Assembly (NCBI GenBank): GCA_016926735.1
Contig: JAFGOA010000183.1
Coordinates: 1-19,423, forward strand
Length of the DNA stretch: 19,423 nucleotides
Source of the DNA: Promethearchaeota archaeon
Lineage (GTDB): Archaea; Asgardarchaeota; Lokiarchaeia; Sigyniarchaeales; SOKP01
Reading direction: 5' to 3'
The position numbers and the translations under genes are program-made. This document shows positions 4,428 through 15,897 of the stretch, in pieces (position 1 is the stretch's first letter; every line of letters starts with the position of its first letter). Under the pieces are notes generated by a model. That model searched no databases. It had not been told where the DNA came from and saw nothing but the letters and a program-made list of their open reading frames with translations.

Positions 4428-5555
4428 TTATTTTAAATTCTCTTTTTTACTATAGTATTTTATCGCAGCTGCATAGTTCTTTGTTGGAATAATTTTTGGA
4501 TTACTGCGAAAGCTACTTGAAATAGTAGAATTACATCTTGAACATAATTGGTTATTTTTCATCCAATCTTTAAATTCATCCGCATGTGCTGGATAATTAC
4601 AATTTGGGCATAAAACTATACCACGACGTTGATCTTCTGGATATTTTGGTAAACTGAAACAGAATATACATTTAAAATCTTCTAATGATAATATAGTTGC
4701 ACTGGGTTTTAATCGTTCTATTTCTTTAATTCTTGCACTTTTACTTTTATTCACTTTTGGTGTAGGTTTCTGTCTGTTTATTGATCTAGTAGGTTTTGGT
4801 CTACTTGTAGTAGTTGTTCTTGGTTTAGGTCGTGTTCTTGGTTTTGGTTTTGATCTTTGTTTAGATTGGCGTTGTTGTCGTGGTTGTCGGGTCGAGATTG
4901 ATTGAATTTGACTTCTTCTCCGTTGGAGGGCGTCCTGAGATATGCTTGATGACCTTTTGGATTTTTTAATAAATCCATAAATAATAATTAGAAGAGAAAA
5001 AATAATAAATAAAAATAAGACAAGTCCAATATGAGTATAGTTAGGATAGATATCATAGAAGCTTTTATTCTCCGAAATAAGAACTATAAAAATAATATTT
5101 AAAATCAAGATAAAAAATAAAATTAAAACACAAAATTTACGTGCTTTTATAGATGTAGTCTTATAGATATATATTACTTCATATTTTTTCATACTTGTAT
5201 ATATGTATGAAAGACCAGCCATTAATAGGGGAAATGATAGAAAAAAAATCCATGGGTTCAAGAAGAAATAGAAATCTGAATCTTGAAACCAGTTCCAATT
5301 AAATAAATCCGTATAATATCCTATGTATAAATAAAGTAACCCTGTAAATATAACTGCCAGAACAAAAAATGATGTATTATGAGGTGAATTATAATCTTTA
5401 AATTTTCTGACTTTTTCTCTATATTTTATGATAAATAATAACCAAAATCCAATAAATATCCATGAAAAAAATATATTTAATGATGATTCTCCAACACCAT
5501 GTACTATACCTATCAAGAAACAAATAAAAAAAATAATAATAGATGATTTTTTAAT
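4428..5555 (-). CDS. Polytopic membrane protein (~6 TM) with basic linker and C-terminal RING-variant Zn finger; candidate membrane-bound E3 ligase
   Basis: Six hydrophobic segments, an R/K/P/Q/S/T-rich linker, then C-x2-C-x16-C-x2-C-x4-H-x2-E-x10-C-x2-C with the RING helix Trp. It is the last gene of the Ubl-E1-E2-JAMM cluster. The ORF track starts at TTG 5516, but the frame is open to an ATT at 5555 preceded by GGTGA, so the start is uncertain. Confidence 0.75.
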   Translation of the reverse strand: MKKSSIIIFFICFLIGIVHGVGESSLNIFFSWIFIGFWLLFIIKYREKVRKFKDYNSPHNTSFFVLAVIFTGLLYLYIGYYTDLFNWNWFQDSDFYFFLNPWIFFLSFPLLMAGLSYIYTSMKKYEVIYIYKTTSIKARKFCVLILFFILILNIIFIVLISENKSFYDIYPNYTHIGLVLFLFIIFSLLIIIYGFIKKSKRSSSISQDALQRRRSQIQSISTRQPRQQRQSKQRSKPKPRTRPKPRTTTTSRPKPTRSINRQKPTPKVNKSKSARIKEIERLKPSATILSLEDFKCIFCFSLPKYPEDQRRGIVLCPNCNYPAHADEFKDWMKNNQLCSRCNSTISSSFRSNPKIIPTKNYAAAIKYYSKKENLK

Positions 5556-5578
5556 TGAAGATCACCAATCTTTATTGA

Positions 5579-6373
5579 TTATTCTTCATCATACTCTAAA
5601 AAGAGTGCTTTTCCTTCAGTTAAAGGATTAACAAATTTTAAAAACTCTGGTAAGACACTTACATCAACAGCTCCCTTTATAATAAAAGGTATTTCATTCC
5701 AGGTACCCATTTCTAAATTAGATCTAAATATTTTGAATCCAAAAGATGTTCCATTAATTTGATATGGATCTATAACGAGAGCAACAGCCTTATTCCATAA
5801 TTTTTGATAGACTGATTGAGTACCTACATCTTCTTCACTCATAAATAATCCGTAAGAAGGATGGGAATGATACCATCCACATATAAATTGTTTTCTCTTC
5901 TTTATTTCATTAAAAGCTCGAGCATGATTATCTGGATTTCGAATTTGAACAGTTATAGCTGTTCCATGTCCCATTGGATAAGCATCTTCTATATTTAAAA
6001 TATTATTTTTATCTAATTTTCCTGCAAGAAGCCCAATAACTTCAACCCACTTCTCTCTTGGAATCTTTGAATTTGCATACTTCAATGCATGTGTCGCTGT
6101 TTTTAATATTGTCTGTACTGAAATAGTACATTCATAATTTTCTGGTTGTTTTGAAATATATTCTTTTTGTGGTTTAACAACTTTCTTTTTTACTGCTGAT
6201 TCTGAAGAAATCTTTTTATCCAATAAAGAAATTACTTCATCAGTCAAAATATCTTCTTTCTCAGCAATCTCTTTATAGATATCTTGTAAAAGTTCATTTT
6301 TAACTTTATCAATAATTTTTTTCTTCAAATCATTTTTAATTGCATTGATATAAGATTCTTCTTTATCTGCCAT
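5579..6373 (-). CDS. JAMM/MPN+ metallo-isopeptidase (Rpn11/CSN5-like) with N-terminal helical extension
   Basis: EVIGLLAG (catalytic Glu), GWYHSHPSYGLFMSEED (H-x-H-x7-S-x2-D) and AVALVIDP; GAGGA RBS upstream. Confidence 0.93.
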   Translation of the reverse strand: MADKEESYINAIKNDLKKKIIDKVKNELLQDIYKEIAEKEDILTDEVISLLDKKISSESAVKKKVVKPQKEYISKQPENYECTISVQTILKTATHALKYANSKIPREKWVEVIGLLAGKLDKNNILNIEDAYPMGHGTAITVQIRNPDNHARAFNEIKKRKQFICGWYHSHPSYGLFMSEEDVGTQSVYQKLWNKAVALVIDPYQINGTSFGFKIFRSNLEMGTWNEIPFIIKGAVDVSVLPEFLKFVNPLTEGKALFLEYDEE

Positions 6374-6390
6374 TCAAATTCCTCGGGATT

Positions 6391-6918
6391 TTACCATTTT
6401 TGATTTGCATATTTTTTAACTAGATGTACTACTTTTTTCTCAAATTTCTTTGGATCATCAATCATTTCTAATGCTGCCTTTTTATTGAAAACATCAGTAG
6501 GATTAACAAATTTACCTCTAGTATTTAACATAGCTTGAATTGCTTGTATTACTGTTTTAATTGTTTTAGATGGGCTCCATCCACCTTTTGTTCCTACTAA
6601 ACTAGGATCAATAAGAGCTAAACATATATTTCTCTCTCCAGGATATTCAGATGGTTTAGGCCAGAAATTAGGATGCCATATTGCAGTATGAATTCTCATA
6701 AAAGGAGGATTCTTAGGATAATCGTGAGGATATTTAATTTCAAGTTTAAATAATCCCTTTTCAAATACAGTTCCCTTAGGACCTACAAGAGTAACTGCTA
6801 AATGATCTATGCTTTTATCTTTTGGATTAAAAGGTTTTAATTGACATATTACACCCTCTTTCAGTAATTTTTTTAGGGTTGCAAAATCCTGAGAGATTCT
6901 ATTGGTTCTCAAACTCAT
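6391..6918 (-). CDS. Ubiquitin-conjugating enzyme E2 (UBC fold)
   Basis: GPKGTVFEKGLF, YPHDYPKNPP, IWHPN, catalytic ICL (Cys99) and WSP. Confidence 0.95.
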   Translation of the reverse strand: MSLRTNRISQDFATLKKLLKEGVICQLKPFNPKDKSIDHLAVTLVGPKGTVFEKGLFKLEIKYPHDYPKNPPFMRIHTAIWHPNFWPKPSEYPGERNICLALIDPSLVGTKGGWSPSKTIKTVIQAIQAMLNTRGKFVNPTDVFNKKAALEMIDDPKKFEKKVVHLVKKYANQKW

Positions 6919-7087
6919 AATTTCTCACTTCTTTTTATTTAAATTTGAATATTCTTTTTTTCAGTACTAATGTAATAAAGTTTTTCTCTTAAATATTTAA
7001 TTTCAATTAAATTTTCGTTTATTTTTATAAAAAATTTTTTTAATTTGAATGATAAATTTGGTCTATTTTACAAATGTAATTATTTTT

Positions 7088-8323
7088 TTAATTCAGATTT
7101 AAATTTACTAAGATTTCTCCTTCTTCAAAACCAGCTACAATAACTAATTCTAAATTTCTCAAATTATTTTCAAGTATAGTTTTATCTGTATCAAGAATGT
7201 TTATATTATTAAAATCCAATACTGTCATTATTGGTTCCATATCTTCATTTAATTTATATCCTTTTTGTTTTAATATATTTATAATACATTCAGCTGACTC
7301 GTTTGAATGTACTAAAATATCTTCTCTTATTACATTTTCCCCGCATTGTATGCATACTTTACTTCGCTTCTTCTCAATCTGGTAAAATCTCATAGTCATA
7401 GCATTTAAAATCATATATGATTTTATTGGTTCTCCTAAAGCATCATTATTTTTAAGCCAATGAAGAATTTTTATTGCTTCATGTGATTGCAAAGCAGATA
7501 TTATTGAATTTATTGTGATTATTCCAGGATCATGACGATCAAGGATTTTAATAATTTCTGATTTTGAAAATCCAGGTTCAAAATGATATTCATTAACTAG
7601 AGCATTAGCTTCTTTCTGAAGGAATTCAATTGTATCGATATTTTTTATATTTGGTTCATTATCATATTTTTCTTGATAGAGGAGATTCGCTTTAAATAAA
7701 CAATGTACCCTTTTTCTTGGAATACCAACAACTGTACATGCTGCCATATCATCATTCTCTGCGGCAGGTAAGGGATTACATTCATAACACGCATTTTCAT
7801 ATGGATAAATTGTATACATATGTCCATGATATCCAGATACACCTCCATCAACCAAAGGTTTTTTAAATCTAATAGCTTGAGCATTCAAATTGAGCCGAGC
7901 ATTCATCGAATCTAACCCTCCTATAATAATATCTGCCTCTTTGTATAAGGAAGGATCAATACGTTCTAAAGAGGAATTATACGCATCAATAGTGATATAT
8001 GGATTAATTTGTCTTAATTTTTTAGCAGCAGCTAAAGCTTTAGGTTCACCAATCTCAGCATCAACAAACAATAATTGGCGATTTAGATTTGAAAATTCTA
8101 TTGTGTCTAAATCAACAAGTATCAGTTTACCCACGCCTACCATTGCTAAATTCTTAGCAATTTCACATCCTAATCCTCCAATACCCGCAATTAAAACAGT
8201 TGAATTCTTAACAATCTCTTGAGACCATCCTTCAAGTCGAAATTGTCGATCATACAATTCTCTTTCTTTTTCAGAAAGATTTTCGCTGAAAAAATTCGAA
8301 TCTTCATTCATAAAAATACCCAT
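7088..8323 (-). CDS. Ubiquitin-like activating enzyme E1 (UBA3/UBA2-like) with catalytic-Cys domain and C-terminal ubiquitin-fold domain
   Basis: YDRQ, GIGGLG, DLDTIEFSNLNRQ, LDSMNAR, Zn pairs CYEC and CIQC, ACTVVGIPR...HC (catalytic Cys196), and an ~80-aa beta-grasp-like C-terminus. Confidence 0.92.
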   Translation of the reverse strand: MGIFMNEDSNFFSENLSEKERELYDRQFRLEGWSQEIVKNSTVLIAGIGGLGCEIAKNLAMVGVGKLILVDLDTIEFSNLNRQLLFVDAEIGEPKALAAAKKLRQINPYITIDAYNSSLERIDPSLYKEADIIIGGLDSMNARLNLNAQAIRFKKPLVDGGVSGYHGHMYTIYPYENACYECNPLPAAENDDMAACTVVGIPRKRVHCLFKANLLYQEKYDNEPNIKNIDTIEFLQKEANALVNEYHFEPGFSKSEIIKILDRHDPGIITINSIISALQSHEAIKILHWLKNNDALGEPIKSYMILNAMTMRFYQIEKKRSKVCIQCGENVIREDILVHSNESAECIINILKQKGYKLNEDMEPIMTVLDFNNINILDTDKTILENNLRNLELVIVAGFEEGEILVNLNLN

Positions 8324-8397
8324 AATTTTATCTACTAATATAATAACTAAAATAAAAAAAATAAATTAAATTCTAAAATTAAAAAAAAATAAATTTA

Positions 8398-8778
8398 TTA
8401 ACATTTACCAGCTGTACTAGCTGGTATAAGTAAGACTTCATCTCCATCTTCAACATTGTACTCTCTTAAAGGTCTTCCTTCATCCATTGTAACTCCTCCA
8501 GAGGATAAATGAAAATCTGAAGGATTTAGACCAAAAATATTTCCAACAGTGTTTTTAATATCTCCTATTCTATTAGCATCATCAACAATTAATTTTTGTT
8601 TCTTTTCTCCAGGACCTATTGTTGAGGTAAAAAATAATGATAATTTTTTTCCTCCACTAGGACCTTTCACCATAGGTGTCTTTGATTGGATTGTTGGGGT
8701 TGATGGTGCTGGAGTCTTAGATATAGGATCATCTAGCTCTTCATCAAAATCTTCATCAAATTCATCATCAAAACTCAT
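8398..8778 (-). CDS. Ubiquitin-like (beta-grasp) modifier with acidic N-terminal extension, C-terminus ...STAG-KC
   Basis: IGDIKNTV...FGLNPSDFHLSSGGVTMDEGRPLREYNVEDGDEVLLIPASTAG aligns gap-free with ubiquitin residues 23-76; first gene of the E1/E2/JAMM/RING cluster. Confidence 0.88.
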   Translation of the reverse strand: MSFDDEFDEDFDEELDDPISKTPAPSTPTIQSKTPMVKGPSGGKKLSLFFTSTIGPGEKKQKLIVDDANRIGDIKNTVGNIFGLNPSDFHLSSGGVTMDEGRPLREYNVEDGDEVLLIPASTAGKC

Positions 8779-8967
8779 TAAAAAAACCTTTTCTTTCTTA
8801 TTTTGTTTTTAATAAAAATTTTTTATAGTAACTAATAAACAATTCATCCTAATAAATAAAAGTTCCAATTTTTATATTATGGGTTTCAATTTTAAATAAG
8901 AAACAATAAAATTATAGAGTCAATACTATATAATTAATTTAAAAAATAATAAAATAATAAAAAAATA

Positions 8968-9819
8968 ATGAAAGAAAAAACTCCTGCTAAATATAGAATA
9001 GAAAGTAAAACACCAGCTGAAAAAAAAGAGGTACAAATTGATAAAAAACTTTTAGATAAAATAAGAGAAGAAAAAAAGAAATTAAAAAAGGAAAGAATAA
9101 AATGGGAAGAAATAGCTCAAATAATGCAAACATATAATACATCTATAGAAGATCTTGAGAAAAAAAGAAAAGATTTAGAAGGAGAAGTAAGAGAACGTGT
9201 TAAAAACCGAGATCAATTAGATAAAGAAATAAAAGACTATGAGAACACTATTGATTCCCAAAAGAGGAATTTAGAGAATGAAAAACAAAAGATCAAAAAG
9301 ACAAAGATGGCTTTAGATAAAAAAGAAAATGAAATAAATAGAGATCAAGATGATGTTGAAAGAAAAATCAATAGATTATCTAATATCAAGAGAGATGTAG
9401 AAGATGAAAAACGAAATTTAGAAAAAACTAGAATCAAAGAACAAGATCGAATTAAAAAAGCAAAAGATGACCTTTCTAAATTAGAGGACAAAAAATACTA
9501 TTTAACAAGAGATATTGATGATCTTCAAAATGATATTCAAAGATATAAAAATGAATTAGGTAAATTAAAAAGTGATAAAACCAAAATAATGAGAGATATT
9601 GATGAAAAGAGAAATAAATTAGCAAAAGAAAAGGATAAAATTAAACGAGAGAGACAAGATCTCGAAAGAAAAAGAAATGAAATTAGACATGAAAGAGAAA
9701 AATTAGAACAAGACAAAGACAGACTAAGAGAAGATGAAAGAAGATTAAATGAAAGAATTCAAAATTTTAAGTCTATACCTAAAACAGAAATTCGATCGAA
9801 AAAACCTTCAAGATATTAA
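8968..9819 (+). CDS. Long, highly charged coiled-coil protein
   Basis: 283 aa dominated by K/E/R/D with heptad-spaced L/I and no Pro over most of its length; divergent from the Ubl gene. Confidence 0.8.
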   Translation: MKEKTPAKYRIESKTPAEKKEVQIDKKLLDKIREEKKKLKKERIKWEEIAQIMQTYNTSIEDLEKKRKDLEGEVRERVKNRDQLDKEIKDYENTIDSQKRNLENEKQKIKKTKMALDKKENEINRDQDDVERKINRLSNIKRDVEDEKRNLEKTRIKEQDRIKKAKDDLSKLEDKKYYLTRDIDDLQNDIQRYKNELGKLKSDKTKIMRDIDEKRNKLAKEKDKIKRERQDLERKRNEIRHEREKLEQDKDRLREDERRLNERIQNFKSIPKTEIRSKKPSRY

Positions 9820-10038
9820 TTTATACTAAATTAATATCCTCTAATTATTACTTCAACTGTTTGTTGAAATTTGATAAAAACACATAAAGATTTTTGAAAT
9901 TTTATTATTGAAATTCAATAAAATTTTTACTTTGAATAGTTAAACTTTTTTAGAACTTATAAATTATAAATTTTAAAATTAACTATTCCAAAAATAATTA
10001 TATAACATTTTTTAAAAGGACAGATAGGATTAAAAAAT

Positions 10039-12518: not shown

Positions 12519-14573
12519 CTAATAATCTTTATATTCTGTTTCTTCAAATAAATTAGAACCTGGATCAAGGAATGCATTTTGACATGAAGGACAACTGTTA
12601 TATTTTGAAATCCAGAATGCTACACATAAATAATGGTAGACAGCATCACAAAACGGACATTTGATAAGTTGATCCTTAACAAAATTAATCTGTTTACGAC
12701 ATATTCCACATTGAATATTTGAAACTTCAATTCCTTCTCTAATTTTTACTTTTTTTTCTACTATATTTTCCAAATTCTTTAATTCTTGATGATAATTTTT
12801 GTTTTGTTCATTTATATGATTTATTTTTGCCTTAATTTCTATTATTCTTTCTTTTAATTCATCTTCGGATAATTTTTCTGCTAAATAATTAGACAATACA
12901 TAATTGAGTGGTATCTCTTTTCCATTCGAATCTTTGTAAGAAATTTCTGTGATATCTTCAAAAAGCGATTCTTCTTTTCCAATTAAATCCCCAAAATTCT
13001 TATAAAGTTTGCTTAAAAATTGAGAGAGTAAAAACCCAACTTGTTGTCTTTTTCTATTAAAATTATCTTCCCATTCTTTTATTATGTGATATTGATCTAT
13101 TTCTTTTTCCTTGAAATCATCTAATTTATTAGATACTTTTTTTTTTATTTCATTAATTTTAATCATATATTCATTAATAATATCATTGATCTCTTTTAGA
13201 GGAGTAAATTTATCAGATAAAATTTCCGCTGTTTTATCTCGATATTCATTGACTAAAATATTCAATTCTTGAATTTTCTTATCAATAAAGCTCTTTATTC
13301 CTTCCTTTACTTTTTCATTTTTATTTATATTTAAATATTCTATAAATTCTTCTTTCCTCCTGCTAATATCTTCTAAATAAATATCATATAAATCTAATAA
13401 TGAATTTAAAATATCTTGGAAGGGATCTAAGAATATTTCAAGTTCTTTAGTGTATTTTTTGATATTTTCTATTTTATTCTTTAATAAATTCATCTTTTCT
13501 GAATATTGGGTTCTAATTTCTTCAATTTTATCTAAATCTTTTATTTCAGATAATATAAATTGATAATAATTTTCAAGACCATTTGTATAATCATCTATTA
13601 ATATAGGAAAAAAATGAGAAATCTTTTCTTTTAACAATTGTTCATAATGCTTTTTTTCTTGCTCTTTTTCTTTTGTATAATGATATTCATCAAACTCTTG
13701 AATATCTTCAATAATAGCTTTTAATTCGAGGAGTATTGAATTTTTAATTAGTGGTTTTAAAAAAATTTTCAAATCTTTTTTTATTTCTTTTCTTTCAATA
13801 ATATTATGAAACTCCTGTTTGGTATTCTCAAATAAGATATTATTTTTGTAGAGAAGATAAAATAACTCTTGTAAAAACTTTTGGTTCTCATTTTTAACAT
13901 GATTAACATAATTATAAATAGTAATAAAAGTAAAATTTTCTATATTCTCCTTCTTTTTTGATTTTATATCTTTATTCTCAATATCATTTTGTATAAATTC
14001 GTATAAACTCATGATTTCTTTCCATATTAAAAGATTCTCAGGATTTTTCATAATTTCAAATTCAAGATTTTTTATTTTTTGAATTTCTATCCACAAATAT
14101 GAAGGATCTTGAAATAAAGGAGCTTCTTTTCCTATCAAGCTTTCGATTTTTATTTTAGATTGAGATAATCTTTCAGATATTTCTGAGACTTTTGATATAT
14201 AATTAATTAAATATTGAGAATCTTTTAGAAATCGAATTGAATTTTGAGCATTCATTTTTAAATTCAATAAATTATTTGAAATAATATTGATCTCTTCTGT
14301 TATTTCTGATTTTAGTTTTGGATATTCATCATAAATACCAAATTTTGGTTTCTTAGATGTTATCAAGTAAGAATCAATAAAAATATCTAGATTTTTTAGA
14401 TAATCACTACTCAAATCCAATAATTTTATTGGAAATTTATTTTCAATGAATAATTGAAATTCAGATTCTTCAATCTTGCCCTCTTTATACTTTAAAATAT
14501 TTTCTTTAGTTTTCAACATTTCTTCCTTGGTGAAACCCACAATATTATCAAAAGAATTATTAACTAACTTCAA
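12519..14573 (-). CDS. Large alpha-helical/coiled-coil protein with C-terminal C4HC3 RING; candidate soluble E3 ligase
   Basis: About 620 aa of helical K/E-rich sequence followed by CGIC-x13-CPFC-x4-H-x2-C-x3-W-x6-CPSC; TTG start. Confidence 0.8.
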   Translation of the reverse strand: MKLVNNSFDNIVGFTKEEMLKTKENILKYKEGKIEESEFQLFIENKFPIKLLDLSSDYLKNLDIFIDSYLITSKKPKFGIYDEYPKLKSEITEEINIISNNLLNLKMNAQNSIRFLKDSQYLINYISKVSEISERLSQSKIKIESLIGKEAPLFQDPSYLWIEIQKIKNLEFEIMKNPENLLIWKEIMSLYEFIQNDIENKDIKSKKKENIENFTFITIYNYVNHVKNENQKFLQELFYLLYKNNILFENTKQEFHNIIERKEIKKDLKIFLKPLIKNSILLELKAIIEDIQEFDEYHYTKEKEQEKKHYEQLLKEKISHFFPILIDDYTNGLENYYQFILSEIKDLDKIEEIRTQYSEKMNLLKNKIENIKKYTKELEIFLDPFQDILNSLLDLYDIYLEDISRRKEEFIEYLNINKNEKVKEGIKSFIDKKIQELNILVNEYRDKTAEILSDKFTPLKEINDIINEYMIKINEIKKKVSNKLDDFKEKEIDQYHIIKEWEDNFNRKRQQVGFLLSQFLSKLYKNFGDLIGKEESLFEDITEISYKDSNGKEIPLNYVLSNYLAEKLSEDELKERIIEIKAKINHINEQNKNYHQELKNLENIVEKKVKIREGIEVSNIQCGICRKQINFVKDQLIKCPFCDAVYHYLCVAFWISKYNSCPSCQNAFLDPGSNLFEETEYKDY

Positions 14574-14697: not shown

Positions 14698-15312
14698 TTA
14701 TTCTCCTAACTCTTCAATATCTATATGCTTTTCTTTAGATCCATCCTTAGTTATAACAAGAATATCAATACCATTACCAGACATAATATCTCTTTTCATA
14801 GCATTTCGGATGATTTTTTCTACTAATTTCTCTCCTTGTGCTACAGTTAAATCTGGTTTATATTCTGCTTCTAATAATCCTATAGACATAAACATTCCTG
14901 TTCCTGCGACACCATAATCTTCAGGAATTAATGATCCAATAGCATCTAAAGTATATAATTTTGGTCCATCTTTATCCATACCAGCTACTACAAGATTAGT
15001 ATATAGAGGTGCCATTTTTCTAGAAAATAGATAGTTTGAAACTAATTTGGCTAAACTCTTTGTAGAAATTCTCTCTCTTGTGTCTAACTTATATAAATTT
15101 GCTTGTGCTCTTAAAATCTTAACAAGAATTTGGTAATCTCCTATAAGACCATAAGCTGCTAATCCAATATATTCAGTTATTTTAAAAACTTTTCGGGTTG
15201 ATTTATTTGATACAGTATAACCCCAAGTAGCACGATTATCATTTCCTAAAATAACTCCATCTTTACATTTTATTGCTACGCCACAAGCACCAGGAACGGT
15301 TATTTCTGTCAT
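14698..15312 (-). CDS. psmB: 20S proteasome beta subunit, predicted non-catalytic (Ala at the Thr1 position)
   Basis: GVAIKCKDGVILGNDNRAT, KVFKI, GLIGD, LDAIGS, GTG and RDIMSGNGID. The ATG at 15312 follows a GGAGA RBS and is preferred over TTG 15324. Confidence 0.93.
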   Translation of the reverse strand: MTEITVPGACGVAIKCKDGVILGNDNRATWGYTVSNKSTRKVFKITEYIGLAAYGLIGDYQILVKILRAQANLYKLDTRERISTKSLAKLVSNYLFSRKMAPLYTNLVVAGMDKDGPKLYTLDAIGSLIPEDYGVAGTGMFMSIGLLEAEYKPDLTVAQGEKLVEKIIRNAMKRDIMSGNGIDILVITKDGSKEKHIDIEELGE

Positions 15313-15897
15313 TCTTTTCTCCAATTATTTGATAGTAGAATACTTAAAAATAGATATTTTAATAAATAAGAATTTGATATTAAATTAATATTTTGTTATT
15401 ATTTGAAATAATTTGTCTAAAATACAAAAGAAAATAATTTCTAATTTCTTTTAATTTCAGACTAAGAAATTGATGTGAAACAATAAGGAACATTTTTATG
15501 AATTAACTAAATCTCGTAGTATAAAGGTTAAATTAATATTCTCTTTAAAAAAAAATAAAATTTTTAAATCTCAATTTTTTATAGAATTTTTTATTCAAGA
15601 TTGAATTGAAATGTTAAAAAAGTACTCATAGATGTTTTTTTGTTATATCTAATATGTAATTGATATTTTTATCAAAATAAAAATATAAATAAAAAAAATG
15701 GTCAACTTAAGGATCTTAATATCATTTTCTCCAATATCAAAATATCAATAATTACTGATTAAGATTAAATTATAGTTATTTCTCAGTTTTTTAGAGATAT
15801 AACCCATATACACCTACTATCTAATATATTATCCATAAATTTTTGTCGTAATTTTTTTTAATCTAACGTATTACTATCTTACCAATTAATCAATAAG

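Follow-up and report, generated by a model that had tools for sequence, protein, structure and literature searches.

The window considered here is one entire 19.4-kb contig (JAFGOA010000183.1) of a Promethearchaeota archaeon, from a genome of 3.88 Mb with 26% G+C and 99% completeness. It encodes a ubiquitin-like (Ubl) modifier, here called the tag, together with a candidate activating enzyme (E1), a conjugating enzyme (E2), a JAMM/MPN+ metalloprotease, a membrane protein with a RING-like C-terminal domain as candidate ligase (E3), and a coiled-coil protein transcribed in the opposite direction. We consider it likely, judging from sequence and fold comparisons, that these six genes form an Asgard module for covalent tagging of proteins, paralogous to the archaeal ubiquitin system linked to genes of the ESCRT machinery for endosomal sorting, and that it works by a mechanism of the kind proposed below. 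This kind of cascade is known, and the earlier note on this DNA already called the general concept not new; published inventories of Asgard ubiquitin components include the operon enzymes. The version with a tag ending in S-T-A-G, a membrane RING protein and a coiled-coil partner sharing a Lys-Thr-Pro (KTP) box is an undescribed variant.

The five conjugation genes are co-oriented on the reverse strand and follow the order of the pathway. The Ubl precursor (8398-8778, 126 aa) comes first, followed by the E1 (7088-8323, 411 aa), the E2 (6391-6918, 175 aa), the JAMM protease (5579-6373, 264 aa) and the membrane RING protein, which occupies 4428-5516 when read from a TTG start (362 aa) or 4428-5555 when read from an in-frame ATT (about 375 aa). 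The gaps of 74, 169 and 17 bp between the first four genes agree with the earlier note, and its value of about 23 bp for the last gap holds for the ATT start at 5555, which brings back an orthologue-like N-terminus of the membrane protein (xKK followed by a hydrophobic helix); with the TTG start this gap measures 62 bp. The sixth gene (8968-9819, forward strand) is divergently transcribed and encodes a coiled-coil protein of 283 aa, without hydrophobic segments and with KTP boxes in its N-terminal part.

The proteins of the window were searched against Pfam, and the presence of orthologous genes was scored locus by locus. In a synteny sample of 47 named Asgard loci, each of at least 12 kb, genes for the membrane RING protein, the JAMM protease, the E2 and the E1 were present in all 47, the Ubl gene in 46 and the coiled-coil gene in 43, and the five genes were collinear and co-oriented, with the membrane RING gene last, in 46 of 46 loci. 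The remaining genes of the window each recur in only 0-3 of the 47 loci. Because the coiled-coil neighbour is kept in 43 of them, the conserved unit comprises six genes, and the earlier reading of a self-contained pathway finds no support; the genome moreover encodes further RING and JAB proteins, including at least five other Prok-RING_1-like matches, one of them 7 kb away in the window. Loci fetched from relatives gave the same order, with all five genes in 17 of 20 and the remaining three broken by contig ends. Among loci of other families or classes it was kept in eight of 11, the exceptions being a locus whose genes are rearranged as E2-JAMM-RING plus Ubl-E1, a second truncated by a contig end and a third with a weak fragment only. 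The membrane protein was found in 33 of 41 related genomes. Across the phylum its profile has matches in 223 of 400 genomes, and within the family to which the window belongs in 117 of 134. When named genomes were scanned, 185 stretches encoding the operon E2 came up, in records that include Promethearchaeia, Candidatus Borrarchaeum, Helarchaeota, Sifarchaeum and Sigynarchaeum.

Two records with bacterial titles, L074 (Candidatus Deferrimicrobium sp.) and L103 (Nanopelagicaceae bacterium), carry the E2 at 74-75% identity, the former together with the coiled-coil neighbour, and probably represent misbinned Asgard contigs. Elsewhere in the window, a gene on the reverse strand (12519-14573) encodes a mostly helical protein of 684 aa with a C-terminal RING finger (zf-RING_2 21.6 bits, Prok-RING_1 21 bits), and adjoins a proteasome subunit gene (14698-15324, reverse strand; PF00227, 174.6 bits). 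Each of the two recurs at only 3 of 47 loci; not being conserved neighbours of the operon, they were not counted as parts of the module.

The AlphaFold2 (AF2) model of the tag, built on 29 orthologues, consists of a beta-grasp domain (residues 45-119; predicted local distance difference test, pLDDT, 82-92) preceded by a disordered tail (residues 1-40). Its best structural match in Foldseek was the Caldiarchaeum ubiquitin (6fno_D, E 9.4e-8; 6fj7), followed by ubiquitin, ISG15 and NEDD8, with ubiquitin-type matches at E of about 1e-7 to 1e-6 and TM-scores (target) of 0.8-0.9; the model and these matches together identify a ubiquitin-type beta-grasp fold. Many orthologues have a precomputed match to Pfam ubiquitin (PF00240) and carry the NCBI name 'ubiquitin-like domain-containing protein'. 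A Gly-Gly C-terminus is absent from 29 of 29 orthologues and from the best 120 of 1185 family matches, with Ala-Gly in its place. The C-terminal L-L-I-P-x-S-T-A-G is fixed, and the best 120 of the 1185 matches show STAG in 116 cases, SIAG in three and SVAG in one. Fifteen of the 29 orthologues end exactly at A-G and the other 14 go on for 1-6 residues; among the best 120 matches, 79 end at Gly and 41 have 1-3 more residues. Such a pattern of ends, either stopping at Gly or bearing a short tail, fits a processed precursor with a mature Ala-Gly terminus. In the window the protein closes with IPASTAG-KC, where S-T-A-G (8407-8418, reverse strand) is the predicted mature C-terminus (Gly124), followed by the K-C codons and the stop. 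The predicted tryptic remnant of about 19 residues would be EYNVEDGDEVLLIPASTAG. The view of the modifier as non-canonical had been founded on its AG end and an acidic tail: the former holds across the family, whereas the acidic stretch (residues 3-17) is an N-terminal extension and not a C-terminal tail.

Long proteins (255-585 aa) with a C-terminal copy of the Ubl are encoded near the operon in several relatives (L034 7203-7970 and 8265-9158; L036 2213-3964; L038 7092-8849; L050 12072-13814). These copies end in S-T-A-G (S-R-A-G in L050), with short tails on most, and may represent the tag in a fused or anchored form.

The disordered tail of the tag contains two KTP boxes, I-S-K-T-P (box 1, 8710-8724, reverse strand) and I-Q-S-K-T-P (box 2, residues 30-35, 8674-8691, reverse strand). 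All of 29 orthologues keep K33, T34 and P35 unchanged, and 119 of the best 120 of 1185 family matches contain KTP. The coiled-coil neighbour begins with M-K-E-K-T-P-A-K-Y-R-I-E-S-K-T-P, and 58 of 61 unique orthologues have KTP within their first 70 residues; several of 12 C-termini inspected end in I-P-K-Y-x-I-K-[ST]-K-T-P-S-K-Y or in tandem I-K-T-K-T-P-S repeats. Within the window, KTP occurs in only two of 22 open reading frames (ORFs), those of the tag and the coiled-coil neighbour. Across the proteome the motif is rare, with 145 occurrences in 3312 ORFs, and eight ORFs have two copies, the same two proteins among them. KTP may be a recognition or acceptor motif shared by the tag and the coiled-coil protein.

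The three enzymes retain their catalytic residues, as motif checks and alignments confirmed for E1 Cys196, E2 HPN and Cys99, and the E, HxH, S and D of the JAMM site, all previously reported as intact. The E1 matches Pfam ThiF at 200.2 bits, with about 65 residues inserted relative to that profile, and consists of the adenylation domain, the inserted catalytic-Cys region, two CxxC pairs (at 179 and 324) and a C-terminal domain of about 80 aa; its GxGxxG motif (GIGGLG) lies at 47. Cys196 (codon 7736-7738, reverse strand) is aligned to the catalytic Cys of human UBA1, which lies in the stretch 'PICTLK' of that enzyme. The E1 scores 138 bits against the active adenylation half of UBA1, 118 bits against MoeB and 69 bits against UBA5. 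It also aligns to the NEDD8 E1 subunit UBA3, from residue 38 to about 329-340 and through the catalytic-Cys insertion, which bears out the eukaryote-type extra domain ascribed to it earlier. A sister E1 type, which shares 38% identity with the operon E1 across 395 residues, can be aligned to UBA3 up to and including the ubiquitin-fold domain (UFD; 21-389 to 36-412), so that the link of the operon E1 to the UFD is transitive only.

The E2 has the UBC fold and matches Pfam UQ_con at 92.2 bits, with Ubc15 as its best match (61 bits), followed by UBE2R2 and other eukaryotic E2s. HPN (residues 82-84) and Cys99 (codon 6622-6624) are invariant in 27 sequences, and the active site holds two invariant insertions, one of 8 residues that separates HPN from Cys and, beyond the Cys, a lengthened loop. 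The operon E2 lacks the canonical short spacing, having HPN-x14-C, compared with x6 in five Asgard E2s of the ESCRT-linked type and x12 in a third type of E2 described below. In one relative (L035 8743-9296) the operon E2 lies in two adjacent pieces, residues 1-86 and 84-175, which could be due to a frameshift or a sequencing error. The JAMM protease (Pfam JAB, 53.0 bits) has an Rpn11-like core at residues 83-206 after an N-terminal extension of about 80 aa, with the metal-site residues E111, H169-x-H171, S179 and D182; its H-x-H-x7-S-x2-D motif is encoded at 5828-5869 (reverse strand). The core scores 61.7 bits against yeast Rpn11 and 61.5 bits against the Caldiarchaeum Rpn11 homologue.

Whether these enzymes form a system of their own can be judged from genomes that hold more than one. 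An ESCRT-adjacent cluster coexists with the operon, at a separate place, in G168 (same class as the window) and G307 (another class), and an E2 stands beside ESCRT-III genes in these two and in two further Asgard families. The proteins of these clusters comprise a ubiquitin of 77-81 aa ending in GG, an E1 of 338-349 aa, an E2 of 153-157 aa (HPN-x6-C) and a small RING protein of 86-87 aa. In the window's genome an ESCRT cluster lies on another contig (C29), and in this assembly the operon has no ESCRT gene beside it. Maximum-likelihood trees of 22 E2s and 22 E1s, which are small, unrooted and made up of Asgard sequences without eukaryotic or Caldiarchaeum enzymes, resolved the same three groups: the operon type (support 82/94 in the E2 tree and 98/98 in the E1 tree), a third type (98/95 and 100/97) and the ESCRT-linked type (100/100 and 84/86). 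In both trees the operon and third types come together, apart from the ESCRT-linked enzymes, and the operon E1 and E2 fall outside the ESCRT-linked orthologous group. On present evidence, the operon system therefore appears separate from the ESCRT-linked archaeal ubiquitin system, because both coexist in G168 and G307 and the E1 and E2 trees split them; the earlier claim of a distinct system stands in this respect.

One alternative is that the operon is simply the Asgard/Caldiarchaeum ubiquitin operon already described, and that the AG end, the longer E1 and the membrane anchor arose by drift among lineages that share a single orthologous system. Both have the same kinds of genes (Ubl, E1, E2, RING and Rpn11-like protease; PMC5654768), the Caldiarchaeum ubiquitin and Rpn11 homologue are the best or among the best matches of the tag and the protease, and no ESCRT-linked-type E2 was found by PF00179 in the window's genome or in G171, where the operon may be the main conjugation system. 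Nevertheless, the coexistence of both systems in two genomes, the supported groups with the same topology for both enzymes, and the identities to the ESCRT-linked enzymes (28-35% for E2 and 31-40% for E1, compared with 55-96% among operon E2 orthologues) speak against drift, as do the different HPN-to-Cys spacing and the fixation of S-T-A-G and KTP in the family. We regard this alternative as improbable, though worth keeping in mind.

Further Ubl-related genes were seen in the window's genome. On contig C100 (9577-9834, forward strand), an 85-aa ubiquitin-like gene (PF00240, 40.5 bits) whose product ends in Q-A-G-G-I-F lies 4.4 kb from genes for a 244-aa MoeB-like ThiF protein and a Roadblock/LC7 protein. 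A third-type E1/E2 pair is located on contig C108 (about 6450-9950), where its neighbours encode a 1075-aa MIT/TPR protein and a Ras-like GTPase. This E1 has a long coiled insert and an N-terminal part set apart by two TAA stops, and the E2 ORF is without its N-terminus; the broken state of the pair may represent assembly error or decay.

The fifth protein of the operon had been put forward as a polytopic ligase candidate, and the predictions agree with a polytopic protein that carries a RING-like domain. Its AF2 model (pLDDT 85) shows five long hydrophobic helices, or six with the ATT start, a disordered and basic linker (196-270) rich in Arg, Lys, Ser, Pro and Thr, and a compact C-terminal domain (residues 276-358, encoded at 4443-4691, reverse strand) modelled with pLDDT 92-97. 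Foldseek ranks U-box and RING domains first for this domain (probability 0.99-1.0, E 0.06-0.8), including several from structures determined together with an E2, and comparison with RING/U-box structures by VIA-align gave Z 6.3-7.3 over 70-75 residues, so that model, Foldseek and VIA-align agree on a RING/U-box fold. In BLASTP, three small RING proteins of ESCRT-linked clusters, two of which exceed the Pfam Prok-RING_1 cut-off, were 30-35% identical to the domain (E 2e-7 to 2.5e-4), and hhalign of its profile with the sequence of a small RING finger protein gave 96.1% probability and E 3.2e-9. These sequence comparisons point to homology between the domain and the small RING finger E3 of archaea. 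Residues C283, C286, C303, C306, H311, D313, E314, C325 and C328 are invariant in 52 homologues. The small RING proteins have H-x2-H where the membrane protein has H-x-D-E, and the latter is therefore read as a RING variant with an acidic sixth ligand. The named homologues are all 'hypothetical protein' and none has a Pfam domain. The membrane protein itself matched Pfam UNC-93 (23.1 bits, cut-off 22.9), but this match covers the hydrophobic helices and was set aside as compositional. Going by the predicted helices of this E3 candidate, the pathway may be localised at the membrane.

Several observations weigh against the proposed module and its ligase. The tag scores 22.9 bits against PF00240, below the cut-off of 25.4. 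The fifth protein reaches no Pfam RING cut-off, with a weak zf-RING_16 match (E 0.039) over the whole protein; its domain has only seven Cys/His ligands, the sixth position being Asp313/Glu314, so that zinc site 1 is no more than putative, and every Foldseek E-value of the domain is above 0.001. The transmembrane domain has no convincing structural relative: Foldseek returned nothing, and VIA-align gave Z 6-9 against generic helical bundles, a range below the tool's caution level for helical proteins, and no fold was assigned. In the genome G032, closed at 4.36 Mb and of the same order, the only trace of the membrane protein is a piece of 40 residues from the RING domain, close to a stop, and the membrane-protein profile found no match in five of five genomes of genus g8 (69-100% complete); the module therefore appears dispensable in some Lokiarchaeia. 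Finally, what speaks for KTP as an acceptor is the sharing of the motif, and the stricter pattern [ILV]x[STE]KTP shows no enrichment across the genome (10 matches, compared with 5-9 in shuffled sequences), so that KTP by itself does not mark out a set of substrates.

Some of these points would suit another role for the membrane protein, as a membrane receptor, an anchor or a substrate, in which the zinc finger would bind tag or E2 but would not activate transfer, with ligation proceeding independently of an E3 or through other RING proteins. The failure of every Pfam RING model, a weak zf_UBZ match of the isolated domain (E 0.007), the acidic residues at the sixth zinc ligand and the other Prok-RING_1-like proteins of the genome can all be accommodated in this way. 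However, the strong profile homology is to a class of small RING proteins that acts as E3 in Caldiarchaeum (PMC5654768) and in the Helarchaeial cascade (bioRxiv 10.1101/2023.07.25.550441). The fold matches are to RING and U-box domains of which several were solved with an E2, and the gene closes the operon in 46 of 46 loci. A non-ligase role thus seems to us rather doubtful, and the candidate E3 function is retained in what follows.

The idea of a mobile anti-virus defence of the bacterial Bil/CBASS-Cap2 type, in which viral proteins would be tagged, can be given very little credence. The E1 does match the PADLOC 'E1-E2' models (best 68.9 bits), with its adenylation core only, the JAMM protease matches JAB models weakly (E 0.001 or weaker) and the flanking genes are not conserved; yet the E2, the Ubl and the membrane protein have no match in the PADLOC library of 2023, almost every genome of the family has the module (117 of 134 by the membrane-protein profile), and the trees group sequences of the same families and classes, as with a vertically inherited housekeeping system. 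It is just as hard to see the tag as a sulfur carrier of the Urm1/SAMP/MoaD kind, served by an E1 that forms thiocarboxylate, in spite of the MoeB score and the two CxxC pairs kept by the E1, given the co-encoded and co-conserved HPN/Cys E2, RING protein and MPN+ protease, the lack of a rhodanese domain in the Pfam search of the window proteins and the separate MoeB-like ThiF elsewhere in the genome. A UFM1 system was also considered and rejected, as the E1 scores half as many bits to UBA5 as to UBA1 and the E2 has the HPN that UFC1 lacks; no UFM1 entry was among the best 50 listed fold matches of the tag. Ufm1 homologues have been reported in Asgard archaea (PMC12962969).

For the tagging module, we propose the following course of events. 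The JAMM protease would trim the C-terminal tail of 0-5 residues from the precursor, here K-C, baring Gly124 of S-T-A-G. The E1 would then adenylate Gly124 and accept the tag on Cys196, its C-terminal domain recruiting the E2, to which the tag would be handed at Cys99. The RING domain, held by the basic linker of about 70 residues on the cytoplasmic side of the anchor of five to six helices, would activate the charged E2 (E2~Ubl), which would pass the tag to lysines of membrane-located proteins, and the JAMM protease would also remove the mark. The tail of the tag is strongly acidic (F-D-D-E-F-D-E-D-F-D-E-E-L-D-D), and the linker of the membrane RING protein contains 15 Arg and 11 Lys in 80 residues; both are disordered and could attract each other.

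A possible extension of this scheme draws on SUMO, which is conjugated at consensus sites (psi-K-x-E) and, in SUMO-2/3, uses a lysine of the N-terminal tail for chains. Similarly, the tag has a flexible N-terminal tail with a conserved lysine motif, and the same motif occurs in a putative substrate; unlike in SUMO, the motif is I-x-x-K-T-P, and the operon E1 is a single chain and not a heterodimer. By analogy, the lysine of I-x-[S/E]-K-T-P might be the preferred acceptor, the coiled-coil neighbour a dedicated substrate or scaffold, and the tag might form chains, a proposal we offer tentatively and with clearly less confidence than the module itself.

Among described systems, the nearest is that of Caldiarchaeum subterraneum, whose operon of genes for ubiquitin, an E1-like and an E2-like protein and a small RING protein, with an adjacent Rpn11, has been reconstituted in vitro (PMC5654768, PMC6043591). 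Its tag ends in G-G plus nine residues and its RING protein is small and soluble (PMC5654768). The two systems have the same five roles, with a JAMM-trimmed precursor and an E1-E2-RING cascade, and are further linked by the tag's closest fold match and by an Rpn11 homologue that scores as yeast Rpn11 does. They differ in that the operon tag ends in S-T-A-G and bears a 40-residue acidic tail with KTP boxes, and in that the operon RING is fused to a membrane anchor of five to six helices. In the ESCRT-linked type, an E1-E2-RING cascade reconstituted from a Helarchaeial contig ubiquitinates UEV-Vps23 (bioRxiv 10.1101/2023.07.25.550441). The ESCRT-linked clusters of the Odin, Hel and Heimdall type (PMC9192718) are similar in their ubiquitin fold and homologous E1, E2 and RING; they differ in their paralogous E1 and E2 groups, GG tag, shorter E1, small RING and ESCRT adjacency. 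We found no S-T-A-G tag, membrane-anchored Asgard RING ligase or KTP/coiled-coil partner in the literature, in which supplementary Clusters I-III of PMC5654768 and earlier Asgard genome papers may show the cluster. Among eukaryotic enzymes, UBA3 resembles the operon E1 in aligning with it through the catalytic-Cys region. Hrd1 and the MARCH/Doa10 class likewise combine a polytopic anchor with a cytosolic RING, and the RING of HRD1 (6f98) was the rank 20 fold match of the operon domain; in Foldseek and VIA-align the membrane domain showed no similarity to any solved E3, and the resemblance is one of analogy only.

Specialised ubiquitin-type branches, such as ubiquitin, NEDD8, SUMO and the membrane quality-control E3s, are hallmarks of eukaryotes. 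A bolder reading is that at least three co-evolving Asgard E1-E2 pairs existed before eukaryotes, and that the operon is a membrane-tethered consensus-site system in which either the E2, with its two active-site insertions, or the RING would read I-x-x-K-T-P, with tail-linked polymers of the tag and a coiled-coil Ubl scaffold under the membrane. We hold this to be speculative and unlikely; if true, such a system would stand as a prokaryotic precursor both to SUMO-like modification directed to particular sites and to membrane RING ligases of the ERAD type (degradation associated with the endoplasmic reticulum). In the more restrained reading preferred here, the module suggests that parallel, non-interchangeable E1-E2 pairs are present in the closest archaeal relatives of eukaryotes, one of them wired to the membrane by a putative RING ligase. 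The shared KTP box points to the coiled-coil neighbour as a candidate substrate and to candidate acceptor lysines. As a compact and conserved unit, the module opens to test the questions of how the various Ubl pathways arose, how an Ala just before the final Gly can be tolerated and which targets the first membrane E3s may have had.

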